In this document: one piece after another, positions 2,454-61,903 of the stretch | Numbering within the stretch: position 1 is the stretch's first letter | How the letters are laid out: each line of letters opens with the position of its first letter | Origin: Shigella phage SP18 | DNA: 64,000 nt | Sequence record: GQ981382 | Reading direction: 5' to 3' (one strand) | The notes under the pieces: model-generated | The model's input: the letters and a program-made list of their open reading frames with translations, nothing else | Databases searched by the model: none | Told to the model about the DNA's origin: nothing | Position numbers and translations under genes: made by a program

Positions 2454-2712
2454 TCTCCTGTAATATTTTTCTCATACTACGCATGGTAGCTTTATGTTCT
2501 TGGTCATGGTATATCAATGCAAGGAGTGCTTCAATTCGCTCCTCAGGGACCTTCTGGCCAGCCTTAATGCTCATGGCTGTTGTTCTTACAGCTAATAAGT
2601 AACTTCGCTTCCTGTCGCTATCTGGGAGCTCCTGTACCTTCCTCAGGCCTGCTTCCATAATACACCGTGCGACATTTTGCAGATTAACTAAACTTCCGTC
2701 AGACATAATCAT
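2428..2712 (-). CDS. hypothetical protein
   Basis: 94 aa ORF, same strand, compact spacing; start uncertain (MIMSDG). Confidence 0.45.
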   Translation of the reverse strand: MIMSDGSLVNLQNVARCIMEAGLRKVQELPDSDRKRSYLLAVRTTAMSIKAGQKVPEERIEALLALIYHDQEHKATMRSMRKILQEIGNDELQS

Positions 2713-2762
2713 ATTTTCACCTCAAAGACATCTTAACACAATTTTTGTGGCTTGTACATAAT

Positions 2763-2791
2763 AAAAAGGTCTCCCGAAGGAGACCAAATTT
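2763..2791 (-). terminator. CUUCGG-tetraloop hairpin terminator (GGTCTCC-ttcg-GGAGACC plus U-tract)
   Basis: perfect 7-bp inverted repeat with cgaa/ttcg loop flanked by A/T runs. Confidence 0.55.
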
Positions 2792-2943
2792 TATTCTACT
2801 TTATAGACTTGACCATACGCCATGAAAGTTTCACCTTCCCAGGTTTCGCACGTGATTGTTACAAATTCTGCAAACAAAGGCTTTTTCTCTGCCCAGAGAA
2901 AACCATATTCACCGGTAGCGAGTGTAATCCAGTATTTAGTCAT
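2791..2943 (-). CDS. small hypothetical protein (~50 aa, below ORF-track cutoff)
   Basis: ATG preceded by GGAGA Shine-Dalgarno, ends at the terminator hairpin; coordinates hand-derived. Confidence 0.35.
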   Translation of the reverse strand: MTKYWITLATGEYGFLWAEKKPLFAEFVTITCETWEGETFMAYGQVYKVE

Positions 2944-2983
2944 ATTGTCTCCTAGTAGCGGGAGAATATTCTCCCACCTCTAT

Positions 2984-4816
2984 TTATAGCGTCGCATTCA
3001 TCCAATCTTTGCGCTGCTGGGAATCTTTACCGAATAGCATTTCGAACAGTTCTTTCCAGTTGTCGGGCAATTGAACAACTTCGAATACCGGTTCAAGCAA
3101 TACGCGTTTATACTCGGAATCTTCCAGAGAGCCAAGCCCCTTGATATATCGAATGGTATGCTTCGGAAGTTTATCCTTAGCTTCTTCATAGTCAGGAAGA
3201 GAATAGAACCATTCTTGTTTATCTTTGAGCTGCGCAATAATAACAGGAGTTTTCACAAAGCGAATTCGTCCTTCATGGAACAGTTCTGGCCAGTTACTGA
3301 AAAACGCCAATAATGACGGATAGATACTACCGACACCATCCACATCCGCATCTGTCATGATAGCAATGTTTCGGTAATTCATATTCTCGGCCGGTTGTCC
3401 AATCGTTAAACCAGTAATCGCACACACATCAAAGGCTTCAGCGTTCTTCATAACTTCAACAGCTTTCAAACCCCATGTGTTTTTAAACTTACCACGTAAT
3501 GGATAAGCACCTTGCAATTCACGGTCACGAACCTTGATAAATGGACCAGTTGCAGAATCACCTTCGGTCAGGAACAGAGTCGTTTCCAACTTATCATTGC
3601 CCCATTCGTTGGCCTTAATATGCTTCTGTACCTTGGCCTTTGAAGCTTTCTTATTTGCCTTAGTCTCTGCTGCTTTCTCTGCAGCCAATTTACGGGCTAA
3701 TGCAGCTTCAACAATCGGCATAATCAGCGGTTCATTTTTCAGAATAGCTTGCGCGATTTTCTTAGCATCAATCTTAATGTGATTTCGAATTTCACCAGCC
3801 GGAGAAGTCAATCGCTCCTTAGTCTGGGAATCAAATCGCATGTTGCTCATATCGCGGATGAACATAAGCATGGTGAGACATTCTTTAACTCGTGCCTTGG
3901 TCACCTCGATGCCTTTATATTTGCGCTTAATCGCCGGCTGAAGGTGTTCACAGATATCATCCATAACACATTCAACGTGGTGTCCGCCATTCTTTGTATG
4001 AATGTTGTTGACATAAGTCAGCTGACGGAAACCATCTGGGCTGGTCGTAAAGGCCATCGATACTGTATCAGTTTCCTGGATAACAACTTCGGTTCCGAAT
4101 TGCTTGGAGAACTTCTTGAAATTACCATCAACCTTTTTACCATTAAAGGTGAACTGAATATCCGGATAAACAACCGCGAGAGTCTGCAGACGGTCCAATG
4201 TAATATCCAGATAAATCTGGGACAGACTATTTTCTTCAAAGTGACTAAAATCTGGAACAAATATAACAGTTGTACCTTTGCCCTTAGATTTCTTGGTCGA
4301 CCAACCTTTGTTTTCCATACCGTTGGAGCAGTTAACGGTGATTTCATTTGCACCATCAGCGGTAATCCCTGTGAACAATACGGAGAAAATATTGGTCAGA
4401 GAAGACCCGACGCCATTCATCCCGCCAGTTTTACGTTCAGCATCATCGCCGAAGTTACCACCAGCTTTTGGAATAGTCCATGCTGCAACAGGGCCAGGGA
4501 TTTGTTCACCGTTTTGGTCTGTAACCATTGCTTGAGGAATACCACGACCATTATCAGAAACCGAAATCTGATTATCTTTAATTTGAACATCAATTTTATT
4601 GGCAAATTTAAAACTGGTGCGAATTGCTTCATCAACAGAGTTATCGATAATTTCATCAATCAGTTTTACAATACCAGGAACATAGCTTACGGACTTATAT
4701 TCACCAAACAAGAATCGCTCATGCGCTTCATTTGAACTGGAACCAATATACATCCCGGAACGTTTTTTGATATGCTCGACGTCCGAGAGTACTTTAATTT
4801 CATTATTAATCATCAT
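2984..4816 (-). CDS. 39: DNA topoisomerase II large subunit, fused 39+60 form (GyrB-like ATPase plus Toprim)
   Basis: 610 aa; GHKL ATPase motifs (IDNSVDEA, DNGRGIP, GGMNGVGSS), Toprim EGDSA and MTDADVDG; continuous ORF, no gene-60 split. Confidence 0.9.
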   Translation of the reverse strand: MMINNEIKVLSDVEHIKKRSGMYIGSSSNEAHERFLFGEYKSVSYVPGIVKLIDEIIDNSVDEAIRTSFKFANKIDVQIKDNQISVSDNGRGIPQAMVTDQNGEQIPGPVAAWTIPKAGGNFGDDAERKTGGMNGVGSSLTNIFSVLFTGITADGANEITVNCSNGMENKGWSTKKSKGKGTTVIFVPDFSHFEENSLSQIYLDITLDRLQTLAVVYPDIQFTFNGKKVDGNFKKFSKQFGTEVVIQETDTVSMAFTTSPDGFRQLTYVNNIHTKNGGHHVECVMDDICEHLQPAIKRKYKGIEVTKARVKECLTMLMFIRDMSNMRFDSQTKERLTSPAGEIRNHIKIDAKKIAQAILKNEPLIMPIVEAALARKLAAEKAAETKANKKASKAKVQKHIKANEWGNDKLETTLFLTEGDSATGPFIKVRDRELQGAYPLRGKFKNTWGLKAVEVMKNAEAFDVCAITGLTIGQPAENMNYRNIAIMTDADVDGVGSIYPSLLAFFSNWPELFHEGRIRFVKTPVIIAQLKDKQEWFYSLPDYEEAKDKLPKHTIRYIKGLGSLEDSEYKRVLLEPVFEVVQLPDNWKELFEMLFGKDSQQRKDWMNATL

Positions 4817-4838
4817 CTTTCCTCTTGTGTATGGAGGT

Positions 4839-4863
4839 ATTATAAGTCACATATTTTAAAGCA
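4839..4863 (-). promoter_or_regulatory. candidate MotA-dependent middle promoter upstream of gene 39 (MotA box TGCTTTA plus TTATAAT)
   Basis: minus-strand reading tttGCTTtaaaatatgtgacTTATAAT about 25 nt upstream of the gene 39 ATG; spacing slightly short of T4 consensus. Confidence 0.35.
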
Positions 4864-4864
4864 A

Positions 4865-4884
4865 AAAGGCCCGAAGGCCTTTTA
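4865..4884 (-). terminator. hairpin terminator (GGCC-cgaa-GGCC with flanking U/A tracts)
   Basis: inverted repeat aaaGGCCcgaaGGCCttt; between upstream gene stop and gene 39 promoter. Confidence 0.5.
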
Positions 4885-15097: not shown

Positions 15098-15616
15098 TTA
15101 ATAACCACGGTCCTGACGAGCAAAGTTCTCAGCATTTTTCAGGTAATACAATTTAAAGATTTCTTCTGCAGATAGACCAAGACCCTGGAACATATTCAGA
15201 ACAAAGTGCAGGATATCAATCATCTCGAATTTAATTTCGAGCTGGTCTTCAGGAGATAAATTATTAATCAGGGTTTGCTGCATTTCGCCATGTTGTGCTT
15301 TCCATGGTTTCCATACGGCCGAGGCAGCTTTCTCGCCATTGGACATACCGCCGAGAGAAGTCAGAAGTTCACGGAATTCGTCGTCAACATAATCTTTCTG
15401 GTTGCGAAGCCATGCAACAACATCGCCCGCGGTTGCCAATTCATCTGGATGTGCGTTATATTCTGGTTTTTCTGTAGCCAGACGAACCTGCAAAGATTTC
15501 TGCATATCAAGCATAATCTGCAGAGGGTCATCATTGCCTTTTAGGACATCATTATACGCATCTTGAGCTTTATCAACACCAGCAATCAGTTGAGAACACT
15601 CGTTAAAATGAGCCAT
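15098..15616 (-). CDS. 56: dCTP pyrophosphatase / dUTPase gp56
   Basis: 172 aa from MAHFNECSQL, resembling T4 gp56 N-terminus and length. Confidence 0.8.
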   Translation of the reverse strand: MAHFNECSQLIAGVDKAQDAYNDVLKGNDDPLQIMLDMQKSLQVRLATEKPEYNAHPDELATAGDVVAWLRNQKDYVDDEFRELLTSLGGMSNGEKAASAVWKPWKAQHGEMQQTLINNLSPEDQLEIKFEMIDILHFVLNMFQGLGLSAEEIFKLYYLKNAENFARQDRGY

Positions 15617-15654
15617 TATATTTTTCCTTATCAATTCATGTTGTTTGTATGTTA

Positions 15655-15680
15655 ATTATATCATATTGGTTTAAAGCATA
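15655..15680 (-). promoter_or_regulatory. candidate middle promoter (MotA box TGCTTTA plus TATAAT) upstream of gene 56
   Basis: minus-strand tatGCTTTAaaccaatatgaTATAAT; spacing about 11-12 nt. Confidence 0.3.
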
Positions 15681-15700
15681 AATACAAGAAAGGAGGATGT

Positions 15701-15898
15701 ATGCTCAAACTATCTAGTCTAATTCAAGCCATCAAAGGCAGTCGTAAGCGAACGATTCTGGTCCTTTCGATACTCTGTTTTGTTCTACTCTGGAATTTCA
15801 TTGTTGTCCCTATTGCATTGGCACATGGTGTTATATTGCCAGTCGTCGCGCTCGAATCAGTTGTAGATGTTTCACTAGCATTAATCGGCCTTATATAG
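15701..15898 (+). CDS. small hydrophobic (two-helix membrane) protein on the opposite strand
   Basis: 65 aa ORF with canonical AAGGAGG SD 6 nt upstream of ATG; sits in the 61-56 intergenic gap where T4 has dam. Confidence 0.45.
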   Translation: MLKLSSLIQAIKGSRKRTILVLSILCFVLLWNFIVVPIALAHGVILPVVALESVVDVSLALIGLI

Positions 15899-16006
15899 GT
15901 GGAACTTACTGGTTGTGCCTATCGCTGCAACACAAGGGGTGCACTTACCCCAGGTCACAATGGAACATATTCATTCCATCATCGGTTACTTTACCGGAAT
16001 CCCTTC

Positions 16007-17035
16007 CTAAACTTTTGCGTACTTCGAAAGTCGCATTCTCGCCATCAATCCTTGAGCAACGTTATCGGCCATATATGATTCGATTTGTTCAGGGGTTGCC
16101 CCTTCTGATTTAACCATCTCATTTATGTCTTTCGTATGCCATGGTGCATTGTCCCAGAACATAACAGCTTCGCCAGCTTCAACGAGCTTCTTCATACGTT
16201 TAATCGTATCCGGATGTCTTGGCTCGTTGTCCATTACCCATACTCTTGTTTCAGCATAAGGAACAGCTTCCAATGCCAATGTGCCACCGGTTATCGCAAT
16301 GCTGTTAGGGATAAACAAACTATCAATTGGACCTTCCATTACCCATACGCGTTTACGCTCATCAATCTTGTCTACTCCATAGACTTTGGAAGCTTCTGGG
16401 TGAGCTTTGATTGTGATATATTTTTGTGGTGCATCTTTGCGAAGAGCTCGTCCTTGGAAAGATTCGATTTCTTTTTTGCCGTTGAAGATAGGAATAACCA
16501 AGCGTGGCTCATTCGTTTCATTCTTATACGTCCCGGGATTAACGGAGTTAACTAATGCAGGCCATTTGTTTGTAAACCATAACCGGTTCCAAACATTGCT
16601 AGGAATACACCGACTTTTTACATACTTAATTATCGGATGTGCTTCTGGTAAAGTATCGAGTCTTTCACAAAAAGCAAGCTGCTCGATAACCGGAGTTTTT
16701 TCTGGTTCTTTCGGAGTTTCTGCAACTTCATTGCGCTGTCTGCCAAAGGCATTCTCCTTATACTTCTCAACCATATATTCCCGGTGTAAATCCGGCTCAA
16801 ACTCTTTTATGTATTTGCTTATATGCGTGGAGTAGTCACAGTTAAAACATTTCACGTAAACCGCGCCATCAGACGGATTGGTATACGCCCAGAATCGAGC
16901 TTTATGTGAATCTTTCTGGGAGTCGCCACAAACTTTACATCTGCAGTTTGCCTTAAATGTGCTCCCGGTGACTTCTCTATAACGTGGTTGATACGATAAA
17001 GCTCTGACTGCAAATTCTTTATCAATATATGACAT
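16007..17035 (-). CDS. 61: DNA primase gp61
   Basis: 342 aa, same length as T4 gp61; N-terminal Cys4 zinc ribbon (CRCKVCGD...CFNCDY) and Toprim core. Confidence 0.9.
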   Translation of the reverse strand: MSYIDKEFAVRALSYQPRYREVTGSTFKANCRCKVCGDSQKDSHKARFWAYTNPSDGAVYVKCFNCDYSTHISKYIKEFEPDLHREYMVEKYKENAFGRQRNEVAETPKEPEKTPVIEQLAFCERLDTLPEAHPIIKYVKSRCIPSNVWNRLWFTNKWPALVNSVNPGTYKNETNEPRLVIPIFNGKKEIESFQGRALRKDAPQKYITIKAHPEASKVYGVDKIDERKRVWVMEGPIDSLFIPNSIAITGGTLALEAVPYAETRVWVMDNEPRHPDTIKRMKKLVEAGEAVMFWDNAPWHTKDINEMVKSEGATPEQIESYMADNVAQGLMARMRLSKYAKV

Positions 17036-17067
17036 AGTTTCCTCATTTCAATGGCCCCGAAGGACCA

Positions 17068-17235
17068 TTATACTGTAGGTTTATCGTCTTTGTTCTTACG
17101 CTTTTTTGATGGGATTTGTTCAGGGCCTTTATTGACAACCACCCCGGAAGTGGTACCTGTTGCGGTATTAGTTGGGTTTCCACCTGCATCACCGGCAACC
17201 ATATCTTCGTTTATAAAATCTTTGAATGTTTTCAT
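17068..17235 (-). CDS. small protein (55 aa) with IP-like capsid-targeting N-terminus MKTFKDFINED and basic C-terminus
   Basis: ATG preceded by AGGGGG SD; N-terminus resembles MKTYQEFITE of the IP genes; hand-derived coordinates. Confidence 0.4.
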   Translation of the reverse strand: MKTFKDFINEDMVAGDAGGNPTNTATGTTSGVVVNKGPEQIPSKKRKNKDDKPTV

Positions 17236-17254
17236 AACACCCCCTTTCCGCTAT

Positions 17255-17446
17255 TTATACAACAAAGATAGCTTTATCACCATTTGCATCAGTCACTTCA
17301 TAAGTGTCTTCATGATACAACGGAATAATCCAGGTAACACCATCATCAGCGATAACATGGATTGCTTCTTGGTCTTGCGACACGATTTCATATTCTTCAA
17401 AAAGCTGGAAGACCGAAATCTTAGAGCCCGTACACATTGCACTCAT
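17255..17446 (-). CDS. hypothetical acidic protein
   Basis: 63 aa ORF. Confidence 0.45.
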   Translation of the reverse strand: MSAMCTGSKISVFQLFEEYEIVSQDQEAIHVIADDGVTWIIPLYHEDTYEVTDANGDKAIFVV

Positions 17447-17642
17447 ATTGTTCCCTTCTTTTAATCAATTGACGATGTGCCTTTTTAAGTTTACGAATCT
17501 GACGTTTAGTCGGTCGCGCAACGTAAGCTTGTGTAGTTACTCGTCCAAAAACACCATACTTAGGCGAAGGAGTATCAATAAAGACTTCCCACTGGCAAGA
17601 GTAACTATATATTGCTTTAGAGAATTGGGTCAAAACAAACAT
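17421..17642 (-). CDS. hypothetical basic protein
   Basis: 73 aa ORF. Confidence 0.4.
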   Translation of the reverse strand: MFVLTQFSKAIYSYSCQWEVFIDTPSPKYGVFGRVTTQAYVARPTKRQIRKLKKAHRQLIKRREQYECNVYGL

Positions 17643-17643
17643 A

Positions 17644-18003
17644 TTAACCTCGCTTCATGAAGGCATTAAAAATCTGGTCATCAATATCAGTAGGCGGTTC
17701 TTGAGCTTTGACCCAAGCCCCTTCCAGAATGTCATTTGCTTCAGTAGATATCATGACCCCAATTTCAGGGTTTCCGGTTATCCATACTGCACAATCGCGG
17801 ACATTCTTTTTATCAAATGGATAACCACGATTATCTTCACAAGGCCCATTCATTGTCATAAATGAACGAGCCTTTATGATAACATCATCTTTAACGATAA
17901 TATAACCAATCGCCTGATTATAACGAGGCTCACGAAATTCATAGTGAGCATTACCATTATTATTGCTCACCAGTTCAAAATTCAGAAAATTATAATAACT
18001 CAT
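17644..18003 (-). CDS. hypothetical protein with C-terminal DDQIFNAFMKRG tail
   Basis: 119 aa; shares about 40-bp 3' coding segment with the adjacent upstream gene. Confidence 0.5.
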   Translation of the reverse strand: MSYYNFLNFELVSNNNGNAHYEFREPRYNQAIGYIIVKDDVIIKARSFMTMNGPCEDNRGYPFDKKNVRDCAVWITGNPEIGVMISTEANDILEGAWVKAQEPPTDIDDQIFNAFMKRG

Positions 18004-20107: not shown

Positions 20108-21547
20108 TTAGAATTTCATTTGAGCAGCAAGGTCGTCCAGGTCGCTCCTGTTGACCCTGGTTTGTCTATTCATTTCAGCCTGGCGATTCATCTCACCGGT
20201 GGCTTCTTTAACCGTAGGGCCTTGTTTAGGAGCTGAATCATCATCAACCTCGTACCAGCGCTGATTGCCTTTCTTAACACCCATCTTGAATTTATTATAG
20301 TAGTTCTTATCGCCATAACGAGACTTAAGCTGTTTGATTAACTGTAGACCCATTTGAGCGAATTCTTCGGTCTCAACAACACCCAACATAAAGTCAGCCG
20401 TGTGAGCAATACCAAAGGATTCTGCGATGTCAGCCATATCAATCTCAGCTGCAACGTTCGCACCCCTGGTTGTCTGCGCTGCAGTCCACAGGACCACATT
20501 TTTCTCAACAGCCAGACCACGAAGTTCTTCTGCAACCATCTTAATCAGGCCGTAACTGTTTTCGGTAAACGTTTTCAGTCTTGAGCTTGCACAGATTGCC
20601 AGGTAGTCAACAATAATCACATCCGGCACAAATCCTTGCTTCAGTTTGTATTCATTCAGCAATGCACGGAAGGTATCCGCATGAGCACCGCCAGTTGGAT
20701 ATTGTTTTATCTTCAGAGTCCCAAGAGTCCCGGAAGCACGCCATTTTTCCATCTTAGCTTTATATTCCGCCCATGATATATGACCTTCATCAATATCATC
20801 CAGAGATACATCCAGCAAGTTGGCATCAATACGTTTGGCACATACTTCTTCAGCCATTTCCATGCTTATATAAAGCACATTATGACCAGTCTGAAGATAG
20901 TCAGCCGCTAACGAACAAAGTCCAAGGGATTTGCCGACGTTCGTCCCGGCCAGTAAAACGTTCTCTGTACCGTACTCAACCCCACCCTTTGTGATTTTAT
21001 TCAGGATGTTAATACGGAACGGAACCTTCTTCGATTTGTTCAGATAAGTCTGGAATCGAGCTTCGTAATCGTTTAACCAGTCATGGCCCAAAGCGGAGTC
21101 AAAACAGATAGACAATGCGTCGCGCATGATGTCGGGGATAGCACCAATATCCGGGATTCGTTTATCACGTTTATCTTTCGGAAGTTCGGCATTACTCTGG
21201 ATTTCGATAATCCTGGATGTGGCATTGAACATCGCAGACTTCTGCACATACTTCTCGGTTTCTTTAACCAACCATTCCTGGTCTTCTGGAGTATCGGCCA
21301 GGACTCCTAAGAGTTTCTTTGTGCCTTCATATTCGACTTCAGAAAGGTCAGAACTGTCGAGCGCGATATCAAGTGCAGTCTTAGTTGGTACCGCTTGATA
21401 TTCTTTTACGTGTTCGTTAATCGTATTAAAAAGAGTCTTCGCGGGACCCTTTTCAAAATATGTGTTATTCAGATACGGCCAGACTTTAACAAAATATTCC
21501 TTGTTAAAGAGTAGCTGGGATAAAATAGTTTCTACCACTTCCACCAC
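20108..21547 (-). CDS. 41: replicative DNA helicase gp41 (DnaB-like)
   Basis: 479 aa; strong identity to T4 gp41 throughout (Walker A GTNVGKS, LYISMEMAEEVCAKRIDAN). Confidence 0.95.
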   Translation of the reverse strand: MVEVVETILSQLLFNKEYFVKVWPYLNNTYFEKGPAKTLFNTINEHVKEYQAVPTKTALDIALDSSDLSEVEYEGTKKLLGVLADTPEDQEWLVKETEKYVQKSAMFNATSRIIEIQSNAELPKDKRDKRIPDIGAIPDIMRDALSICFDSALGHDWLNDYEARFQTYLNKSKKVPFRINILNKITKGGVEYGTENVLLAGTNVGKSLGLCSLAADYLQTGHNVLYISMEMAEEVCAKRIDANLLDVSLDDIDEGHISWAEYKAKMEKWRASGTLGTLKIKQYPTGGAHADTFRALLNEYKLKQGFVPDVIIVDYLAICASSRLKTFTENSYGLIKMVAEELRGLAVEKNVVLWTAAQTTRGANVAAEIDMADIAESFGIAHTADFMLGVVETEEFAQMGLQLIKQLKSRYGDKNYYNKFKMGVKKGNQRWYEVDDDSAPKQGPTVKEATGEMNRQAEMNRQTRVNRSDLDDLAAQMKF

Positions 21548-21876
21548 CTCTTTTTCATTTTAATTTTATCAATTTCATCTTGTATTTGCATTGTAACACA
21601 CTTTTCTACATGCACAGCAAGCTCCGCTTTGCGGTCTTCAGAAGGGGTGCCGAAATCAACTGAAACTTTTCCAGATGGTTCAATTTTAATTCCGGTTACG
21701 TACACAATGTGACTGGACCCATCAGGGAGTGATAACAGAATTTCCTGCCGTACAGTTCCCATGGATTGCCGGATAATCTCCAAACTTTTTTCGTAGTAAG
21801 GTACAGAAGGAGCCTTAGCTCCCTCCGCATCTTTCTCGAAATTATCTAAATCAGATAAATCGATATCATTCATCAA
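21532..21876 (-). CDS. 40: gp40-like protein (head vertex assembly chaperone position)
   Basis: 114 aa between 41 and uvsX as in T4; positional. Confidence 0.5.
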   Translation of the reverse strand: MMNDIDLSDLDNFEKDAEGAKAPSVPYYEKSLEIIRQSMGTVRQEILLSLPDGSSHIVYVTGIKIEPSGKVSVDFGTPSEDRKAELAVHVEKCVTMQIQDEIDKIKMKKRWWKW

Positions 21877-23044
21877 GGTCTTCCATCATATCTAAATCGT
21901 TTTCGATATCTGCCGCAGACGGTTTTGTCTTACCTTCAGGAGCAGTGTATTTTTCAACCTTGGAGGCAATAAGCGCATCAACTTCGGCATCAACAACAGC
22001 ATTGCTATCGATTGCACCCAGTTGGTAATGGCGTTTGATTGCATCACGGAAAGGTTCGTGCTTGAACAGCGGGCCCCAGAATTCGGTGCAGTTAGTATCT
22101 TTTGCGCGCCATGATTTTTCTTCGCGGACCATTTCACCGGTCTCAACATCAAGATATTCACGGTTATACCAACCAACTTTTGGTTTCACCACAAATCCGA
22201 TTTCCATTGCCATATCAAGCAGGCCAGAATACGGGTCAATACCCCCATCGAATTTTACATCAATGAAGAATTTACTTTTCTCTTTGACCATACGAGATTT
22301 TTCGGCGTTCAGAACAAATTGGAAGCCTTCAAGTTCTTTACCAGTTTCTTTAATCTGGCGTTTGCCGATAATGAATACGGTGTCTGCGGAATACATAACA
22401 CCTGTACCACCGGTCATAACGGTTTTGCTATACATCTCAATCGTCTCGATTGTATGGTTAACCGCGACACAAGGAATATCCTTGATGCTAAAATACGGGG
22501 TAACAATACGGAACAGAGATTTCAGGGATTTAGCACGAGTCATATCACCAACAACTTTTTCGTTCATCGCATCTTCTGTTTCTTTTTTCGACGCCATGTT
22601 ACCGATTGAGTCAATAAAGATAATGACTTTTTCACCACGCTCAATTGCTTCAAGCTGGTTAACCATATCAACTTTCAATTGTTCAACCGACTGGATTGGT
22701 GTATGGATAACACGCTCCGGGTCAACTTTCATTGCACGAAGATATGCTTCTGTGATACCAAATTCTGAATCATAGAACAAACAGATTGCATCGGGGTATT
22801 TGTTCATATATGCAGAGACCATCGTTAAACCCATATTGGATTTAAAGTGTTTTGACGGACCAGCAAAAATAGTCAAACCTGACTGCATACCACCATCTAG
22901 TGCACCGCTGATTGCAATGTTCAGCATCGGGATTTTTGTACGAACTACATCTTTATCATTAAAGAACTTGGACTTGGTAAGAGTCGCAGTCATTTTGGAT
23001 GTAGAAGCTTTAATCAAACGGGATTTCAAATCTGCAATAGACAT
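21866..23044 (-). CDS. uvsX: UvsX recombinase (RecA/Rad51 family)
   Basis: 392 aa; near-colinear with T4 UvsX (Walker A GPSKHFKSN). Confidence 0.95.
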   Translation of the reverse strand: MSIADLKSRLIKASTSKMTATLTKSKFFNDKDVVRTKIPMLNIAISGALDGGMQSGLTIFAGPSKHFKSNMGLTMVSAYMNKYPDAICLFYDSEFGITEAYLRAMKVDPERVIHTPIQSVEQLKVDMVNQLEAIERGEKVIIFIDSIGNMASKKETEDAMNEKVVGDMTRAKSLKSLFRIVTPYFSIKDIPCVAVNHTIETIEMYSKTVMTGGTGVMYSADTVFIIGKRQIKETGKELEGFQFVLNAEKSRMVKEKSKFFIDVKFDGGIDPYSGLLDMAMEIGFVVKPKVGWYNREYLDVETGEMVREEKSWRAKDTNCTEFWGPLFKHEPFRDAIKRHYQLGAIDSNAVVDAEVDALIASKVEKYTAPEGKTKPSAADIENDLDMMEDLDE

Positions 23045-23129
23045 TCATTTTTTCCATAGGCACCATTATATTTTTCTCACAGGTTTAAGATAGGATAATT
23101 ATATCACTGTATTTTTAGAGCAATTAATG

Positions 23130-23633
23130 TTAGTTAATACCTTGGCGTGCTTTCTCTTTAGCTATACATTTATTAATATAGCTCAGACGGTTTTGAGCAG
23201 AACGCTGATACATATCGCGGTACTCATTAGCTTTTGGAGAACCCGTCTCCGCCGCCTGATAAGCTTCCGCGCGCATGATGTTTATCTGCATATTGATGTA
23301 TGACATGCAGACCTGCGAAATCTGGTTAACAGTATCCAGGTCATTTTGTCGCTTGGTTTCTGCTTCCAGCTTGGCAATGATTTCGTCATGCTTCGCAGCT
23401 TGCTCGCGTTTGTACTCAATTTCTTGTTGAGCATATTTCGCGCAGTTGTTTCCACATTGATTGTTGTCGCGTTTGTAGATAAGTCCAGTACCACCTTTGA
23501 AATCAAAGGAACCATTATGCACCCGACGGTCGGCAGCAATTCGCGCTTTACCAATCTCGTTGGCATTAACAACATCACCCTGGTAAGCACAACCAGATAG
23601 CAGCATAACAGCTGCGATAGCTAACTTTTTCAT
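23130..23633 (-). CDS. lipoprotein of unknown function, coiled-coil rich
   Basis: signal peptide plus lipobox MKKLAIAAVMLLSGC; track ORF extended upstream. Confidence 0.55.
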   Translation of the reverse strand: MKKLAIAAVMLLSGCAYQGDVVNANEIGKARIAADRRVHNGSFDFKGGTGLIYKRDNNQCGNNCAKYAQQEIEYKREQAAKHDEIIAKLEAETKRQNDLDTVNQISQVCMSYINMQINIMRAEAYQAAETGSPKANEYRDMYQRSAQNRLSYINKCIAKEKARQGIN

Positions 23634-23783
23634 TGTATTTTCCTCAATTAAAACATTCATAGCGGGCTTGGAGCCCCAAAAATACCCAACCCAAAATTAA
23701 AGTTGGAATCATATGTGGAGTCATTATTGCCCAGTAGATTGACATACTAAAAAATGCAATCAGTACAATAATTGTAATTATCT

Positions 23784-24026
23784 TCATTTTGCTTCCTTGA
23801 TGATAATTACTTGTGCGTTTGATTTACGTTCAGCAACGAGTGCCCAGATAAATGCAATAAACCATCCGACCATTGTCCAACCTAACAGGAGGTTAACAAA
23901 GAAGATTCCGCAATTACTTTTGGTTCCACGCAGTAGCGCGATAATCCACGGCAGAAAATATGCCAGTGCAGCCAGGAAGAAAGAACCTGCACCAAGAACA
24001 ACAGTACCCGCAATTAATGTTTCCAT
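23784..24026 (-). CDS. small two-TM membrane protein (possible Imm-like, immediately upstream of gene 43)
   Basis: 80 aa highly hydrophobic; T4 imm occupies this position; assignment tentative. Confidence 0.5.
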   Translation of the reverse strand: METLIAGTVVLGAGSFFLAALAYFLPWIIALLRGTKSNCGIFFVNLLLGWTMVGWFIAFIWALVAERKSNAQVIIIKEAK

Positions 24027-24095
24027 TTTAATATCCTTAAGTTATTCATCAGTTGATGGGGTAATCATACGGCAATCCATTGCCGTTGTAAACAC

Positions 24096-26810
24096 TTAAA
24101 AGTCAAACATATCAAAAAGAGTTGCTTTCTTTTCGTAATCAACCTTAGCTGCTTCAGAGAAACCTGTTAATGGCTTAACAAAAGTCTTCTGGAACAGTGT
24201 GTTGTAGTCCATCCACTGCAAGACTTGGTCACGAATTTCAATCGGGAGTTCAATCCCTGACGGCCATGCAATCACAGTTTCACCAAACGGGTTGCCGACT
24301 TTAAGAGGAAGTACATACACCTTTTCCCCTTCCATGATTTGCGGAACAGTCTTCAGACCTTTAGTTGCACGCATATATGCAAGCACACCTTTGATATGAG
24401 CCGGACACTTAAATCCAGGGAAACCGCCTTCATTATATTTCTGGATGTTGTTAACCGATGATACACCTGCGATGGTCATGTAGTTAAGCTCATTAAATTC
24501 CTTATTGAATTCCTTGAAGTATGTCTGCAGAGATTCTTCACCTTCTTGCAGCATACGGCGGATACATTCTTTCAGAGCTTTCTGACATGCCTTTGGAGTA
24601 CTCGACTTTTGAGTTTCCAGACCCATGATTTTCAGTTTCGGAACCGCATATCGTGTGCCTTCCATATCGTACACGTTCAGCGCATAACGCTTCTTCGCCG
24701 TCCAGAATCCACCCACACCTTTAGAACCCAGCGGAGGACATGCAATCGCCTCACGGTCCATAAACATAAGGTGCTGTTTGTTGTTCATGTATTCAGCCAG
24801 CTCACGGAAAGCTTTATCGATTGCCGGTTCCAGACGGTCTTTCGCAAACTTGTCCATGAAGTCAACCAGGTGGTTTGTATCACGGAATTTAGATTCGCCA
24901 CCAACCTTTTTAATCAGGTTATCGCACTGGATATAAATGGAGTCAGTATCGCCATAGAACACATAAGTTTCACCGCTTGTCCCACAAACACTATCGAAGT
25001 ATTCGTTAACTTTACGCTCAATCCACTGCAATGCAAGTTGTCCGAAAGATGTAATCGCGGTTGCATTTCGCAGGTCAAAGTAACGGAACCAGATATTACC
25101 CAGAGCGCCATAACAACTGTTGATAAGCAGTTTACGGTTAATCTGTGCGGTCATGCCTGCAACTTCTTCCATCTGCGCTTTGTACAACATACCATTCAGA
25201 ACTGTTTGATTCAGACCATGTAAGGTTGTTTTCATATTGTCATCAAAGTCATGACGATAATCAACTTCAGGCTCGGTTGTACCAGTTCCTGGATTACGCA
25301 GAGCTTCCTTAATCAGTTCACCATTACGTTGAGCCGCAAGCATATAGCCTTTGTGCTCTTTACGCTGATTAAACACCTTGGTGACTTCTGTCGGAATAAT
25401 ACCCGCAACATCTTTAAAATACATCATACCATTTGGAGCACAACTAAATGTATCAGATGGACGGTCAGCAGTTCCTGCGATGTATTCGTACATCGGCGCT
25501 GGTGCAAATGACCCGGCAATCGTTTCTGGACTGATGTTAATCTGTCGGATGATGCTCGGATACAGAGATGTTAAGTCACAGCTCATAACGTATTTGTATG
25601 CGTTCGGAATCGGTTCCTTAACAAATGCACCAGGGAACGATTGGCGAACATGTGATTTGGTTTCCGGAATGACTTTGTTTTGAGTCTTCAGGCTGTTAAA
25701 GATAATCGCATCCCAAGTTTTGATTGGGCTGAATACAGACTGAATCTGCATTTTTGCATAATAACCCATTGACTGGCTCAGGTTAATAAACTGCCGCTTA
25801 CGGTCAATCTGCACAACACGATAAACGTCGATGATGTTATAAGAAATATACCGCTGGTGATTTGATTCACGCAGTTTAGAAATCGGGCCATCATACGGGA
25901 GTTTACCAACACCCAGTTCAGATTCCGCAACATAATCCAACGAATAAGACGGTTGGTTTGTGAAGCTGAACTTTTTATACAGGTCCAGATAATCCAGAAC
26001 AGAGATACCCAGAATCTGAATGATTTCTTGTTCTTCACCAAAGCCGTTGTTAATGACTTTAACTTTTGTACGACGATGTGGGCTCAGACGTTTTGCCGTA
26101 GCTTCACCAAATACATTTTTAAGGCGGTTGTAGATATATGGAATATCAAACTTCTCGATGTTCCAACCAGTTAACATAACCGGAGTTTTCTCGTTCCAGA
26201 ATACCAAATACTGCTGGAGCATTTCTTCTTCTGAATCGAAAGCCATATAAACAATTTTTTCCAGGATTTCTTCCGGGACTTCATCACCACCATCTTCCTG
26301 CAGCTTAGCAGCAATATCAATAGACCATTGCTCCACAGTGGCGTATGGTGAGCCCAAAAGGTCAAAGACATAGAATTTATCGTCTACCGAATCATAGTGC
26401 GTCAGGGCATCAATAGGGTGACGTGCTTCAGACGGTTCAGGAAACCCATCAGGAGATGTCACCTCGATATCGAAGTTAGCAACACGGATTTTACTTGAAT
26501 CATATTTGATTTCGTGTGGGTAACGGTCGGACAAGTATGCGAGTTTAAAGTCGTCCATACCCATAGCTTCGAGACCCATGTCATTCATTCGCTTCATCCA
26601 CTGGGATGCATCACGCATGGAATCGAATTCTTTTTTCACACAACCTTTATTATAGATGTCTGTATACTTTGCAGCTTGGTCTTCGCGGGCGTGCATAAAC
26701 AAGCATGGAGCATAAGGGATTTCACGAACACGTTCATGACCATTCTTGTCAATATATCGTTCGAGCAGATTGTCACCGATTTGTTCGATAGTTAAATAAA
26801 ATTCTTGCAT
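24096..26810 (-). CDS. 43: DNA polymerase gp43 (family B, 3'-5' exonuclease plus polymerase)
   Basis: 904 aa; exo motifs FDIEV and YNIIDV, polymerase motifs DLTSLYPSII, KILINSCYG, YGDTDS; RB69-like by memory. Confidence 0.95.
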   Translation of the reverse strand: MQEFYLTIEQIGDNLLERYIDKNGHERVREIPYAPCLFMHAREDQAAKYTDIYNKGCVKKEFDSMRDASQWMKRMNDMGLEAMGMDDFKLAYLSDRYPHEIKYDSSKIRVANFDIEVTSPDGFPEPSEARHPIDALTHYDSVDDKFYVFDLLGSPYATVEQWSIDIAAKLQEDGGDEVPEEILEKIVYMAFDSEEEMLQQYLVFWNEKTPVMLTGWNIEKFDIPYIYNRLKNVFGEATAKRLSPHRRTKVKVINNGFGEEQEIIQILGISVLDYLDLYKKFSFTNQPSYSLDYVAESELGVGKLPYDGPISKLRESNHQRYISYNIIDVYRVVQIDRKRQFINLSQSMGYYAKMQIQSVFSPIKTWDAIIFNSLKTQNKVIPETKSHVRQSFPGAFVKEPIPNAYKYVMSCDLTSLYPSIIRQINISPETIAGSFAPAPMYEYIAGTADRPSDTFSCAPNGMMYFKDVAGIIPTEVTKVFNQRKEHKGYMLAAQRNGELIKEALRNPGTGTTEPEVDYRHDFDDNMKTTLHGLNQTVLNGMLYKAQMEEVAGMTAQINRKLLINSCYGALGNIWFRYFDLRNATAITSFGQLALQWIERKVNEYFDSVCGTSGETYVFYGDTDSIYIQCDNLIKKVGGESKFRDTNHLVDFMDKFAKDRLEPAIDKAFRELAEYMNNKQHLMFMDREAIACPPLGSKGVGGFWTAKKRYALNVYDMEGTRYAVPKLKIMGLETQKSSTPKACQKALKECIRRMLQEGEESLQTYFKEFNKEFNELNYMTIAGVSSVNNIQKYNEGGFPGFKCPAHIKGVLAYMRATKGLKTVPQIMEGEKVYVLPLKVGNPFGETVIAWPSGIELPIEIRDQVLQWMDYNTLFQKTFVKPLTGFSEAAKVDYEKKATLFDMFDF

Positions 26811-33420: not shown

Positions 33421-33563
33421 AAGCCAAGCACCGTTATCGCAATGCAAAATAAAATTATTGAAATGAACCCGTCAGGAGTGGAAAAGAATCCTATCCAACA
33501 AGCTCGTGTGAATGTATAGAATGCCATGAATAGCACGACATATCCTAAAAATAATTCCATATG
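33417..33563 (-). CDS. small hydrophobic membrane peptide (~48 aa, below cutoff)
   Basis: ATG after GAGGAGAAC SD; TGA overlaps gene 47 ATG; coordinates approximate. Confidence 0.35.
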   Translation of the reverse strand, partial: HMELFLGYVVLFMAFYTFTRACWIGFFSTPDGFISIILFCIAITVLGL

Positions 33564-33610
33564 TTCTCCTCAGTTGGTTCATTTTATCATCCCGAATATA
33601 AAGCAAAAAA

Positions 33611-33627
33611 GGAAGCACTAGGCTTCC
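33611..33627 (-). terminator. hairpin (GGAAGC-actag-GCTTCC) with flanking A/T runs
   Basis: inverted repeat in the 47-upstream region. Confidence 0.4.
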
Positions 33628-33947
33628 TTTCCAATTAATACACCGTACAGAGGTTCGTGAGAAGACCTGAACTTGATAGGCTTATAGGTAATAGTACCTT
33701 CATTTTCTGCTTTAATGCGAGCGGCTTCAAATTGAAGTATCATCTCATTTTTGTCAGATTTAATCTTATCAAAATCCGTCGAATTCGTCATTCATACAGC
33801 CTCTTAAAAATCAGGATGTTCGTCTTGAAATATATTACCCAATCGTTTTAATTCATCAGAAGTAAGAATATCTACATCATCAATAGCCATAATATGCCTC
33901 TTAAACTTTTTCGTATTCGTCTTTCATTAGCCAACCTGTCCATGTTA

Positions 33948-38501: not shown

Positions 38502-38972
38502 TTAATCATGTTTCCACACCCCATCGGTATTTGACCAAAGTCGCTGATTATCTGACCCTCGCCACAGTTTTTTGGTCGGAAGATTTTTCTCATACTTCCC
38601 ATCAATAATAACATCAACATATTTAAGCATTTCTAGTTGTTTAATATCTTCAAACTTATATCCCGTCCACATCCAAATGCTTTTATTGGGATAAAGATTT
38701 TTAATAGTTTGAACCACAGAGTGAATAACATCTCGGTTATCAGGATAGAGAGGGTCTCCTCCGGTTATAGTTAATCCTTCTATATAATCATTATTCAAAC
38801 ATTCAATTAATTGTTCTAGTGTTTTACCAGTAAATGGAACACCATTTCTAGCATTCCATGTTGATTTATTATAACACCCTTCGCATTTATGCAAACAACC
38901 TGTAACGAAAAGAACGACCCTACAACCAGGGCCATTCACAAAATCACAAGGATAAATTCTATCATAATTCAT
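38502..38972 (-). CDS. nrdG: anaerobic ribonucleotide reductase activating protein NrdG (radical SAM)
   Basis: 156 aa as T4 NrdG; CxxxCxxC radical-SAM cluster motif (CLHKCEGC). Confidence 0.85.
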   Translation of the reverse strand: MNYDRIYPCDFVNGPGCRVVLFVTGCLHKCEGCYNKSTWNARNGVPFTGKTLEQLIECLNNDYIEGLTITGGDPLYPDNRDVIHSVVQTIKNLYPNKSIWMWTGYKFEDIKQLEMLKYVDVIIDGKYEKNLPTKKLWRGSDNQRLWSNTDGVWKHD

Positions 38973-40786
38973 TGATGTTTAACCCTATGCATGATTTCTT
39001 TATTTTTGCCGAGATTAAATCCACGTTCGTTCGGATTCCCCAAATAGCCGCATGTTCTTCTTATTGTGTTCATCTTTTTAGGGTCAGTTTCTCCACAAAT
39101 AGAACAAACAAATCCGTTTTCAGTAGGAGTCATTTCATGGGTACTTCCACACGTAAAACATTTATCTACTGGCATATTAACACCAAAATAATCTAAATGT
39201 TGTGCAGCATAATCCCATACAGCCTCAAGACCTTTTAAGTTATTTTTCATATCAGGAAGTTCAACATAAGAAATGTGACCACCTGTTGCAATGAAATGAT
39301 ACGGTGCTTCGCGAGAAATCTTTTCAAACGGAGTAATATTTTCTTCTACTGAAACGTGGAAACTATTAGTGTACCAGCCTTTATCAGTAACATCTTTTAC
39401 ACTTCCATATTTTTCGGTATCAAGTTTACAGAAGCGATAGCACAGGTTTTCAGCAGGAGTAGAATACAAACTAAAAGCAAATCCGGTTCTTTCAGTCCAC
39501 TGCTTAAGACGAGCATTCATTTTAGTCAAAATTTCTTGTCCAATATCACGACCGACAAGAATATTCAATTCGTGAATACCAATGTATCCTAAGGACACTG
39601 AACTTCTACCGTTTTTAAATAACTCAATTATATCGTCATCGGGTTTAAGACGAACCCCGAATGCACCTTCTTGATAAAGAATAGGAGCAACAGTCGCTTT
39701 AACTCCTTTTAAGGAACTAATTCTACACATCAAAGCTTCAAAACATAAATCCATTCGCTCATTGAACAATTCAGTAAATTTCTGTTCATTGAACTGTGTT
39801 CCAATATAAGAATCTAATGCAATGCGAGGAAGATTCAGTGTTACAACACCAAGATTATTACGTCCATCAAGAATTTCATTACCAGTCGAATCTTTCCATA
39901 CGCCCAAGAAACTACGACAACCCATTGGAGAAACAGGAATAGATGAACCAGTGATAGCTTTGTTATTCTTAGCTGAAATGATATCAGGATACATTCTTTT
40001 GCTTGCACACTCTAAAGCAAGCTGCTTAATATCATAGTTTGGGTCGTCTTTATAAAGATTAACACCTTCTTCAACGAACATAACAAGTTTAGGGAAAATA
40101 GGAGTTATCCCATCACGACCAAGACCTTTAATACGATTTTTCAGAATTGCTTTCTGAATCATTCGTTCGGTCCAGTCAGTTCCGGTACCAAATGTAATTG
40201 TCACAAAAGGAGTCTGACCATTTGAGCTAAAGAGAGTATTTACTTCATATTCATAAGCTTGGAATGCATCGTATACGTCTTTTTCTGTTTTAGATTGGGC
40301 ATAATTCAACGCATCAGTGATTTGCCATTTTTCCGCGTCCTCAATATGTTTCGCATAGGTACGTTTAACATAAGGAGAAAGTACTTTATCTACATTCGCA
40401 AAAGTCGTTCCGCCATATTGATGGGAAGCAACCTGCGCAGTAATTTGTGCCATAATTGCAGTAGCAACACTGATTGATTTAGGAGTTTCAATCTGTGCAT
40501 TACCGAGTTTAAATCCGTTCTCAAGCATTCCTTTTAAATCTACTAAACAGCAATTAGTAAATGGAAGAGCAGGGGAATAATCAATATCATGGAAATGAAT
40601 AATTCCGCTTTCATGTGCTTTCATAATAAAAGACGCGACCATATTTTTGGCAATATGTTTAGATACAATACCAGCCATAAGGTCACGTTGAGTTGGAAAA
40701 ACACGAGAATCTTTATTAGCATTCTCGTTTAAAAGGTCTTTATTAGTTTTATGAATCAATCCTTCAATTTCGTTTTCAATTGTCAT
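38969..40786 (-). CDS. nrdD: anaerobic ribonucleoside-triphosphate reductase NrdD, uninterrupted
   Basis: 605 aa as T4 NrdD; C-terminal glycyl-radical region and CxxC zinc motifs; no intron. Confidence 0.9.
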   Translation of the reverse strand: MTIENEIEGLIHKTNKDLLNENANKDSRVFPTQRDLMAGIVSKHIAKNMVASFIMKAHESGIIHFHDIDYSPALPFTNCCLVDLKGMLENGFKLGNAQIETPKSISVATAIMAQITAQVASHQYGGTTFANVDKVLSPYVKRTYAKHIEDAEKWQITDALNYAQSKTEKDVYDAFQAYEYEVNTLFSSNGQTPFVTITFGTGTDWTERMIQKAILKNRIKGLGRDGITPIFPKLVMFVEEGVNLYKDDPNYDIKQLALECASKRMYPDIISAKNNKAITGSSIPVSPMGCRSFLGVWKDSTGNEILDGRNNLGVVTLNLPRIALDSYIGTQFNEQKFTELFNERMDLCFEALMCRISSLKGVKATVAPILYQEGAFGVRLKPDDDIIELFKNGRSSVSLGYIGIHELNILVGRDIGQEILTKMNARLKQWTERTGFAFSLYSTPAENLCYRFCKLDTEKYGSVKDVTDKGWYTNSFHVSVEENITPFEKISREAPYHFIATGGHISYVELPDMKNNLKGLEAVWDYAAQHLDYFGVNMPVDKCFTCGSTHEMTPTENGFVCSICGETDPKKMNTIRRTCGYLGNPNERGFNLGKNKEIMHRVKHQ

Positions 40787-41256
40787 TTTAAACTCTTTCT
40801 AAGCTGCTTCTTAAATGAAGCCATTAATTGTGTTTTGGTGTCAGATTCATTATAAGTCATACCATTCAAAAGCATTTCCCGAATCATTTCTTCTTTTCCC
40901 AGGCGACCGAACTCTTTGGCTTTGTCTGTTACAAAATTGGGGTGAATATTGTTTTCGGTATAATCAGATTTCAGATAGACAAGCAAACTCTCTAACCATT
41001 CCAGGTAGTCAACATCGCGACTTTTTAGACCCGAACGGCTGAACTTATGCTTCATTTGTCCTTCTGTTCCATTGCACAGATTGCATAGTAACCCGCGAAC
41101 CTTACCGGCTTTTGGTCCGTTCAATTCGTGGTCATGGTCAAGATGGTTGGCCTGAACATCAGAGTCCAAATCACGGTGGCAAATTGGACACTTACCAGCT
41201 TGTGCATCATAAAGTTTTTGTTTTTCTTCTTTGTATAATTTGCCAGTCAACAACAT
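40783..41256 (-). CDS. 49: endonuclease VII (Holliday junction resolvase) gp49
   Basis: 157 aa as T4 endo VII; N-terminal Cys zinc site and His-rich nuclease motif (HLDHDHELNG). Confidence 0.85.
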   Translation of the reverse strand: MLLTGKLYKEEKQKLYDAQAGKCPICHRDLDSDVQANHLDHDHELNGPKAGKVRGLLCNLCNGTEGQMKHKFSRSGLKSRDVDYLEWLESLLVYLKSDYTENNIHPNFVTDKAKEFGRLGKEEMIREMLLNGMTYNESDTKTQLMASFKKQLRKSLK

Positions 41257-41261
41257 AATAA

Positions 41262-41290
41262 AACCCTTACCATTATTAGATAAGGGTATT
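41262..41290 (-). promoter_or_regulatory. hairpin sequestering the gene 49 Shine-Dalgarno (ACCCTTA-loop-TAAGGGT)
   Basis: 7-bp perfect inverted repeat whose 3' arm (TAAGGGT) lies 6-12 nt upstream of the gene 49 ATG. Confidence 0.5.
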
Positions 41291-41386
41291 TATTAATATC
41301 CTAATAGTTTAGCAGTGCAACTTAGCACTAACAACAATCCGAATAAAGCAACTCCGGCCCAAAATACCGTAATAAGAGCATCCATA

Positions 41387-61668: not shown

Positions 61669-61678
61669 GATATTTTCC

Positions 61679-61903
61679 TCAGTATTCTTCATCATATTCA
61701 AAGTCTTCATCAAACTCGGGTTCCAGAGAAATTTCTTCTTCTGGGTGGAATTCACAAGGGAAATATTCCACTTCACCACAATCGGCGTCATAGGACTGGA
61801 AATCAATTTGGATTACGGTTTCGGATACAACAATAACTTCAGCAACCAAGTCACCTGCAATTTCCATTCCAACTTTAACATCTTTAGCTTTGATAGTATT
61901 CAT
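61679..61903 (-). CDS. small acidic hypothetical protein
   Basis: about 74 aa from MNTIKAKD following GGAGAATAAA leader. Confidence 0.5.
   Translation of the reverse strand: MNTIKAKDVKVGMEIAGDLVAEVIVVSETVIQIDFQSYDADCGEVEYFPCEFHPEEEISLEPEFDEDFEYDEEY

Follow-up and report, generated by a model that had tools for sequence, protein, structure and literature searches.

An aspartate-177 thymidylate synthase as a predicted route to 5-methylcytosine DNA in Gaprivervirus, T4-like coliphages devoid of known cytosine-modification genes

Introduction

T4-like phages of the genus Gaprivervirus present a paradox. Pan-genome work on the genus found all known cytosine-modification enzymes missing while DenA, DenB, Alc and the dCTPase are kept, and proposed that an unknown non-canonical base may exist in these phages (PMC8056088, PMC12115623); the 2025 paper withheld a judgement on their use in therapy because their DNA chemistry was unknown (PMC12115623). 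In RB69, the Dhakaviruses and others, the corresponding module is an arabinosyl-5-hydroxycytosine pathway around the thymidylate synthase (TS) homologue RB69 gp48 (PMC13326640, 2026). Replacement of cytosine by 5-methylcytosine (5mC) is known from phage XP12, also from primary work as cited in PMC8543423. Here we analysed a stretch of 64,000 nucleotides from Shigella phage SP18 (sequence record GQ981382), referred to as the window, with the interval between uvsX and gene 43 as its focus, together with td, the TS gene (product Td), of its relatives.

The product of a TS-superfamily enzyme can be predicted from a small number of residues. At position 177, asparagine selects deoxyuridylate (dUMP) and aspartate deoxycytidylate (dCMP) as substrate (PMC13326640; PMC8670742). 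At position 143, leucine goes with a methyl product and aspartate or glutamate with a hydroxymethyl product, and asparagine at position 169 is the mark of 5-hydroxy-dCMP synthases (PMC13326640). A TS in which aspartate replaces Asn177 acts as a dCMP methylase (PMC8670742, after Hardy & Nalivaika 1992 and Liu & Santi 1992). When seven natural TS homologues with Asp177 were co-expressed with T4 gp1, which handles such nucleotides, five of them, that of XP12 among these, formed 5-methyl-dCMP; as 5mC phages deaminate the methylated nucleotide to thymidylate (dTMP), a second TS is not needed (bioRxiv 10.1101/2024.12.05.627091). For the Gaprivervirus VR7, the DNA was described as having non-glycosylated 'modified cytosines' and set apart from 'hydroxymethylated' T4147 in an assay with EcoRII and SalI (both blocked by 5mC), Csp6I and T4 β-glucosyltransferase (BGT), and the phage was fully restricted by BREX (Gordeeva et al., PMC6326788).

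Results

The window comprises ~38% of the genome and the td locus lies ~80 kb beyond it, so that the case for SP18 itself rests on its relatives. Genome-wide searches were performed on the complete genomes of the relative vB_EcoM_RZ and of T4, and open reading frames (ORFs) were compared additionally with 135 kb of phage JS98. Sensitive searches of RZ (phmmer, hmmsearch --max) revealed just one TS-superfamily ORF, td, adjoining frd. Gaprivervirus Td (for example YP_010651110) is 68% identical to T4 Td and occupies the same frd-td locus; the Td of the relatives has T4 Td (PDB code 1TIS, E 6e-128) as its best structural match, belongs to PF00303 and possesses the catalytic C146. The RZ enzyme carries the motif LGLPF-D-IGSY, compared with LGLPF-N-IASY in JS98 and T4 Td. 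In E. coli ThyA numbering, the aspartate of GLPFDIGSY is N177D; C146, R166, D169 and N177 fell in place in the E. coli sequence used for the numbering. The 25 other catalytic and ligand-binding residues are unaltered, including Leu143, Cys146, His147, Asp169 and the C-terminal tail (...PMAV). Td therefore reads D177/L143/D169, for which the residue code predicts the synthesis of 5-methyl-dCMP from dCMP.

Asp177 was seen in every Gaprivervirus Td that was checked. All 31 Gaprivervirus records of the phage collection contain this Td lineage, as judged by amino-acid identity to RZ Td (28 at 97-100% and three at 85.7%), and the motif GLPFDIGSY was read in the four cluster representatives without exception. 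The codon is GAC in RZ, VR7 and TH41 and GAT in CJ20, which has an 86%-identical allele, whereas JS98 has AAT for asparagine. Among the 120 nearest protein clusters, aspartate occurs in the four of Gaprivervirus and in one sister metagenomic lineage, asparagine in 114 of T-even phages, and one cluster had no match to the motif; among 150 more diverse TS representatives, asparagine was found in 130 and aspartate in five. In IMG/VR, the exact codon pattern of GLPFDIGSY retrieved only VR20/25/26 and two chance matches in unrelated proteins of high G+C content. A looser codon pattern retrieved 41 TS homologues with Asp177, most of them keeping PPCH and the TS tail, which shows that this class is widespread.

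A sister Td with Asp177 (P0073) is encoded at 3953-4831 of an uncultured T4-like contig (Logan SRR24146912, L014, 5417 bp) carrying gp32, frd.2, frd.1, frd and td. It is 68% identical to RZ Td and has many Gaprivervirus-specific substitutions in common with it; the gp32 end of the contig alone resembles known Klebsiella phages (~79%).

Further T4-like phages with the same paradox, among them the Acinetobacter phages 133 and ZZ1, are named in PMC8056088. Td of phage 133 (NC_015250, 140516-141463) reads LGKPF-D-IASY with L143 and D169, and Td of ZZ1, a phage examined for td alone, reads LGMPF-D-IASY and likewise combines Asp177, Leu143 and Asp169. In the 132 of 160 kb of phage 133 that were examined, the remainder being a structural block, td is the single TS homologue; gp56, alc, denB, ndd, gp1, cd and frd are kept, and no gp42, 5-hydroxycytosine (5hoC) synthase or glycosyltransferase was found. 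The controls have Asn177, both in AM101, a related Acinetobacter phage with the arabinose module, and in T4 and JS98. As the Acinetobacter and enterobacterial Td proteins are only ~50% identical and each group with neighbours of the asparagine type, the switch arose at least twice. The annotation 'thymidylate synthase' is probably wrong in 133 and ZZ1, as in Gaprivervirus, judging from these residues.

The genes which in T4 act against cytosine are retained. Gene 56, encoding the dCTPase/dUTPase, is located at 15098-15616 on the minus strand of the window; its product matches Pfam dUTPase_2 and phrog_173 and shows 70% amino-acid identity to T4 gp56 over the full length of 172 residues (E 2e-80), so that gp56 is intact and its presence, noted in the original prediction, was confirmed. 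The T4-type accessory set is present, with gp56 in the window and gp1, Alc, DenA and DenB in RZ and VR7. Identities to the T4 proteins amount to 68-70% for gp56 and, in RZ, to 56% for Alc, 71% for DenA, 46% for DenB, 62% for Ndd, 48% for gp1, 87% for Cd and 65% for Frd. Ratios of nonsynonymous to synonymous substitution rates (dN/dS) within the genus were 0.05-0.19 for td, 0.07-0.11 for frd, 0.12 for alc, 0.05 for denA, 0.05 for denB and 0.02 for cd, and 0.18 for gp56 against the VR7 and RZ alleles. All seven genes are held by purifying selection, and the retention of frd fits a reductive methylation which yields dihydrofolate. In the comparison of RZ with JS98, the orthologues that have diverged most include gp1 (47%), alc (49%) and denB (43%); as these proteins must read the substituent at C5 of cytosine, their divergence is a weak hint of a changed base. 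Such traces as 5mC deamination might leave in the G+C content or mutation spectrum were regarded as insufficiently diagnostic. According to Kashlev 1993, cited in PMC8056088, Alc no longer acts when cytosine is methylated.

Gene 56 is diverse within the genus, the window allele being 70.5% identical in amino-acid sequence to gp56 of VR7 and 86.6% to that of RZ, compared with 89-96% nucleotide identity of the flanks. The homing-endonuclease gene segF adjoins gene 56 in VR7 and is missing from the window. Both observations are consistent with endonuclease-driven allele exchange.

The search of the complete RZ genome for modification genes gave no homologue of gp42, b-gt, a-gt, Dam, Arn or IPI (tblastn; for gp42 also phmmer and hmmsearch). 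Likewise, the window and RZ contain nothing homologous to the JS98 orf38-42 module or to the arabinosyl-5-hydroxycytosine module of RB69 (p003/p045-p053/p055). The suspicion that the modification genes had simply moved elsewhere is thus not supported by this genome, which is without gene 42, glycosyltransferases, the arabinosyl module and dam, in agreement with PMC8056088 and PMC12115623; of the genes to be sought genome-wide, gene 42 and the glycosyl- and arabinosyltransferases were not found in RZ, but alc and denB were. The other possibility raised at the outset, a different strategy of cytosine modification, gained support from the modified cytosines of VR7, from the selection acting on alc, denA, denB and gp56, and from the change of Asn177 to aspartate in the sole TS.

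A Gaprivervirus-specific enzyme was sought by comparing the RZ ORFs with those of T4 and of 135 kb of the JS98 genome, and no enzyme domain was detected in the unmatched ones. They comprise small ORFs (up to ~170 amino acids), homing endonucleases, a collagen-like ORF on the plus strand and ORFs resembling internal head proteins. As the unmatched ORFs are small or encode homing endonucleases, none is a candidate for a new enzyme. The two largest non-T4 ORFs of the window were considered as a source of genus-specific chemistry and rejected: the one at 60982-61806 encodes a protein of 228-274 amino acids (phrog_1843; JS98 orf120 / RB69 ORF132c), the one at 61970-62929 a protein of 319 amino acids (Pfam DUF7277 and DUF7275, phrog_2141; JS98 orf122 / RB69 ORF134c), and because both are 90-98% identical to JS98 proteins they cannot explain a chemistry specific to Gaprivervirus. 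Our literature search found no paper naming the Gaprivervirus base or its enzyme.

Five small ORFs at RZ 80163-81617 (21522-22976 of segment L007) open with a sequence similar to the T4 capsid-targeting signal (MKTYQEF...), as in internal head proteins, and the cluster has no counterpart in T4 or JS98. These ORFs are candidates for anti-restriction proteins that the phage injects, and growth on McrBC-positive hosts could be due to them.

The uvsX-43 interval of the window, a hot spot for modification genes, is bordered on the left by uvsX (21866-23044, minus strand; 79% amino-acid identity to T4 UvsX) and on the right by gene 43 for the DNA polymerase (24096-26810, minus strand; 60% identity to T4 gp43 over 903 amino acids). 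An empty cargo site was identified at 23045-23129, the 85 bp between uvsX and a lipoprotein gene. This is where T4 has segA/b-gt/42 and where JS98 and RB69 have the 5-hydroxycytosine-arabinose module. The stretch 23049-23108 matches the uvsX-proximal spacer in JS98 (93% identity) and in RB69 (84%), the homology stops beyond, and tblastx revealed no remnants of gene 42, b-gt or the arabinose module in the 85 bp. In Gaprivervirus, the hot spot that accommodates the cytosine-modification modules of other T-even lineages is thus without cargo.

Three small genes on the minus strand occupy the rest of the interval. The first, at 23130-23633, encodes a lipoprotein of 167 amino acids with the lipobox LLSGC (MKKLAIAAVMLLSGC), a member of phrog_1754 and of the JS98 orf43 / VR7 ORF049c family. 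Its start was set to the ATG at 23633 because all homologues have 167 amino acids. The family is narrow, with seven homologous clusters each of this length and a dN/dS of 0.07; the protein shows 52% identity to JS98 orf43, resembles T4 imm.1 in its N-terminal signal and lipobox region alone (E 6e-4) and has no Pfam match. It is not a DNA-modification enzyme. The second gene (23644-23787; 47 amino acids) is a homologue of T4 42.1 and RB69 ORF054c (64% identity to RB69p054, E 2e-14; phrog_3610), and its VR7 counterpart is annotated 42.1. The third gene (23784-24026) encodes an 80-residue superinfection-immunity membrane protein, Imm, with 52% identity to T4 Imm (E 3e-24), 68% identity to JS98 Imm and a match to PF14373 (Imm_superinfect) above the gathering score (E 1e-17); both this match and the position upstream of gene 43 identify it. 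The original prediction had listed b-gt, gene 42 and imm as missing here and only a lipoprotein and an 80-residue membrane protein as present. For b-gt and gene 42 this holds, as tblastn gave no match between uvsX and gene 43; the membrane protein, however, is Imm itself, and the 42.1 homologue had been overlooked beside the two genes correctly listed.

The other canonical sites are likewise devoid of modification genes. No significant match to T4 gp42, b-gt, a-gt or Dam was obtained with tblastn in the window (best E 0.36-1.6), and TS-family queries found nothing in it (phmmer, hmmsearch --max). The interval between genes 47 and 55 (33448-33947), which holds a-gt and mobB in T4, contains 47.1 and small ORFs only: positions 33448-33553 correspond to T4 47.1 (78% identity, blastn), followed by a-gt.3-.5, and neither blastn nor tblastn with a-gt revealed similarity or a remnant. 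In the spacer between genes 56 and 61 (15617-16006), the site of dam in T4, a 65-residue ORF on the plus strand (15701-15898) is homologous to the ORF of the T4 dam-61 spacer. Here, the match to T4 16785-17935 (tblastx, blastn) is confined to the part downstream of dam, no remnant of dam was seen, and T4 Dam had no tblastn match in the window or in RZ. The earlier statements that a-gt and dam are absent from these two sites proved correct. Between rIIA.1 and gene 39 (2237-2983), where RB69 encodes the arabinosyltransferase gp3, only ORFs of 94 and ~50 amino acids are present, and RB69p003 had no significant tblastn match in the window or in RZ. The thymidine kinase gene tk (52901-53473, minus strand) encodes a protein 71% identical to T4 Tk, through which thymidylate might be salvaged if the phage is without a dUMP-specific Td.

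Judged by its sequence, the window represents the early third of the genome of a Gaprivervirus (Straboviridae, Tevenvirinae), a T4-like coliphage, with the early genes. A 6-kb stretch around the uvsX-43 locus shows nucleotide identities of 98.3% to TH41 and UPEC01, 98.2% to CJ20, 97.6% to the RefSeq genome of vB_EcoM_RZ and 94.7% to vB_EcoM_VR7, and over the whole window RZ is 89-97% identical. The T4 gene order is kept from rIIA (2-2236) through the e/nudE region with all early genes on the minus strand, at a G+C content of ~40%.

Some further features of the window were observed. The segment 38952-41295, which contains nrdD and the start of gene 49, is 94% (38952-40248) and 87% (40251-41295) identical to T4 at the nucleotide level, compared with 65-75% elsewhere. 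NrdD shows 98.8% amino-acid identity to T4 NrdD across 425 residues, nrdG is located at 38502-38972, and the T4 nrdD intron with I-TevII is missing from the window nrdD; VR7 has neither nrdD nor nrdG. The nrdD/gene 49 segment suggests that an exchange with a Tequatrovirus took place recently. RZ has homing-endonuclease genes after gene 39 (2495-3202 of segment L001) and between genes 56 and 61 (L001 14269-15018), and the window lacks such genes at 4817-4882 and 15900-16007, which means that the content of mobile endonucleases varies among near-identical genomes. At 17644-18003, an ORF of 119 amino acids (VR7 '61.2', phrog_4122) weakly resembles Pfam AdfA (anti-DarT factor A) at its C-terminus, with an E of 1.5e-4 and a score under the curated cutoff.

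Discussion

The observed gene absences, the genes retained under selective constraint and the Asp177/Leu143/Asp169 signature with its spread point to a full replacement of cytosine by 5mC of the XP12 type, achieved by a point-converted Td on T4 machinery. On the sequence evidence, we regard this as rather probable. The absence of modification genes beside retained anti-cytosine genes was already known from the 2021 and 2025 papers; the answer based on Td is the proposal of this analysis.

We infer the product of the enzyme, the virion base and the source of dTMP as follows. The cytosine-modifying function would have moved to the phage's own td next to frd. The dCTPase gp56 would convert dCTP and dCDP to dCMP, which Td with Asp177 would turn into 5-methyl-dCMP by reductive methylation; the dihydrofolate formed would be recycled by Frd. 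The dNMP kinase gp1 together with the host NDP kinase would supply 5-methyl-dCTP, and its incorporation by gp43 would place 5mC in the positions of cytosine. Alc, DenA, DenB and Ndd would then hit only the cytosine DNA of the host and spare that of the phage. Thymidylate might come from the deamination of a methylated cytosine nucleotide by Cd, as in the XP12 type, from host ThyA or from salvage.

Several points weigh against this proposal. The VR7 paper leaves the modified base unnamed (PMC6326788), and, with td outside the window, the evidence for SP18 comes from other phages. The residue code is not absolute, as two of the seven Asp177 homologues gave no 5-methyl-dCMP (bioRxiv 10.1101/2024.12.05.627091). 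RZ was grown on E. coli K-12 MG1655, which is McrBC-positive, although DNA fully substituted with 5mC should be a target of McrBC and Mrr; as RZ has no arn or ipI homologue, a counter-defence must be assumed.

One can speculate instead that an unrecognised enzyme introduces an unknown cytosine modification and that Asp177 Td is incidental or supplies only a precursor. Such a modification was proposed in PMC8056088 and PMC12115623, VR7 was described merely as having 'modified cytosines', and many Gaprivervirus ORFs are of no known function. We nevertheless consider this unlikely: besides homing endonucleases and the collagen-like ORF, the RZ ORFs absent from T4 and JS98 are small and without enzyme domain, and a Td with Asp177, Leu143 and Asp169 would suffice and recurs independently in 133 and ZZ1. 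There is also a slim chance that 5-methyl-dCMP is processed further, or that an uncharacterised early protein makes another base, either way yielding an undescribed cytosine derivative; this would be the fourth T-even cytosine chemistry after glucosyl-5-hydroxymethylcytosine (glucosyl-hmC), arabinosyl-hmC/5hoC and 5mC.

It seems improbable that Asp177 Td is a dCMP hydroxymethylase and the DNA contains non-glucosylated hmC. T4 gp42 also has aspartate at this position, and T4 with sugarless hmC is viable in permissive hosts and BREX-sensitive like VR7. However, Td keeps Leu143, which excludes water, and a full TS C-terminus, whereas hydroxymethylases have aspartate or glutamate at position 143; the maintenance of frd by selection is consistent with dihydrofolate arising from reductive methylation, and after the T4 BGT test Gordeeva et al. 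called T4147 'hydroxymethylated' and VR7 only 'modified'.

We see little likelihood that Td is bifunctional, acting on dUMP as well as dCMP and giving partial 5mC, or that SP18 differs from its relatives outside the window. The engineered N177D and N229D enzymes of 1992 are said to retain some activity towards dUMP, and the window is only about two fifths of the genome. Against this, the phage keeps the dCTPase gp56, by which dCTP is completely excluded in T4, and the same gene set is found in all 31 sequenced relatives.

Ordinary cytosine DNA as in RB49 and RB43, with gp56 acting only as dUTPase and as supplier of dCMP and dUMP and with Alc and DenB changed in specificity, is very unlikely: RB49- and RB43-type phages without gene 42 do retain gp56 and denA (PMC8056088; PMC12115623 Table 4), and VR7 is fully BREX-restricted like unmodified phages, but RB49 and RB43 types are without alc and denB, which Gaprivervirus keeps under purifying selection, VR7 DNA is modified by experiment, Td with Asp177 would give up dTMP synthesis for no gain, and, as T4 with hmC but without glucose is equally BREX-sensitive, such sensitivity is no sign of plain cytosine.

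The 5mC proposal offers a concrete answer to the paradox flagged by the 2021 and 2025 papers, in which phages have the anti-cytosine weapons of T4 and no known route to a non-canonical cytosine. If it is true, the full 5mC phages would include, besides XP12, an entire genus of common coliphages and no fewer than two Acinetobacter T4-like lineages. A single residue change in a housekeeping enzyme would then be able to replace a multi-gene hypermodification module, and thymidylate would be made with methylation and deamination in reversed order. It would also provide an E. coli system for studying 5mC DNA against McrBC, Mrr, BREX and other defences, and improve the annotation of genes that are all labelled 'thymidylate synthase'.

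Among known systems, RB49 and RB43 (Krischvirus, Pseudotevenvirus), with unmodified cytosine, resemble Gaprivervirus in having no gene 42 or glucosyltransferases while keeping gp56 and denA; unlike them, Gaprivervirus keeps alc and denB, and the DNA of VR7 is modified. With the engineered dCMP methylases E. coli N177D and L. casei N229D, the enzyme shares the single substitution, the rest of the TS active site being intact. In contrast to these laboratory mutants, the enzymes of Gaprivervirus, 133 and ZZ1 are natural, fixed and under purifying selection.

RB69 and JS98 (Mosigvirus, Dhakavirus) are the closest relatives of Gaprivervirus, with the same flanks (orf43 lipoprotein, orf44/42.1 and imm) at the same hot spot. 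Their module of five to ten genes, made up of the D169N TS homologue gp48/orf39, a kinase, genes for arabinose-nucleotide synthesis and arabinosyltransferases, is wholly missing from Gaprivervirus, whose sole TS has Asp169. Like T4, Gaprivervirus keeps gp56, gp1, alc, denA, denB, ndd, cd, frd and the uvsX-42.1-imm-43 backbone; unlike T4, RZ is without gene 42, both glucosyltransferases, dam, arn and ipI genome-wide, and its Td has Asp177.

By analogy, the Gaprivervirus set of one Asp177 TS, cd, frd and dNMP kinase fits the logic of XP12 and PaMx74 (Pseudomonas), phages with 5mC in place of all cytosine, which have one Asp177 TS that forms 5-methyl-dCMP from dCMP and an enzyme of the dCMP-deaminase family able to supply thymidylate from the methylated nucleotide. 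XP12 and PaMx74 are siphoviruses of Xanthomonas and Pseudomonas, whereas the Gaprivervirus enzyme is a point-changed orthologue of T4 Td with a predicted product, and the putative pathway is set in the T4 machinery of gp56, gp1, Alc, DenA, DenB and Ndd.

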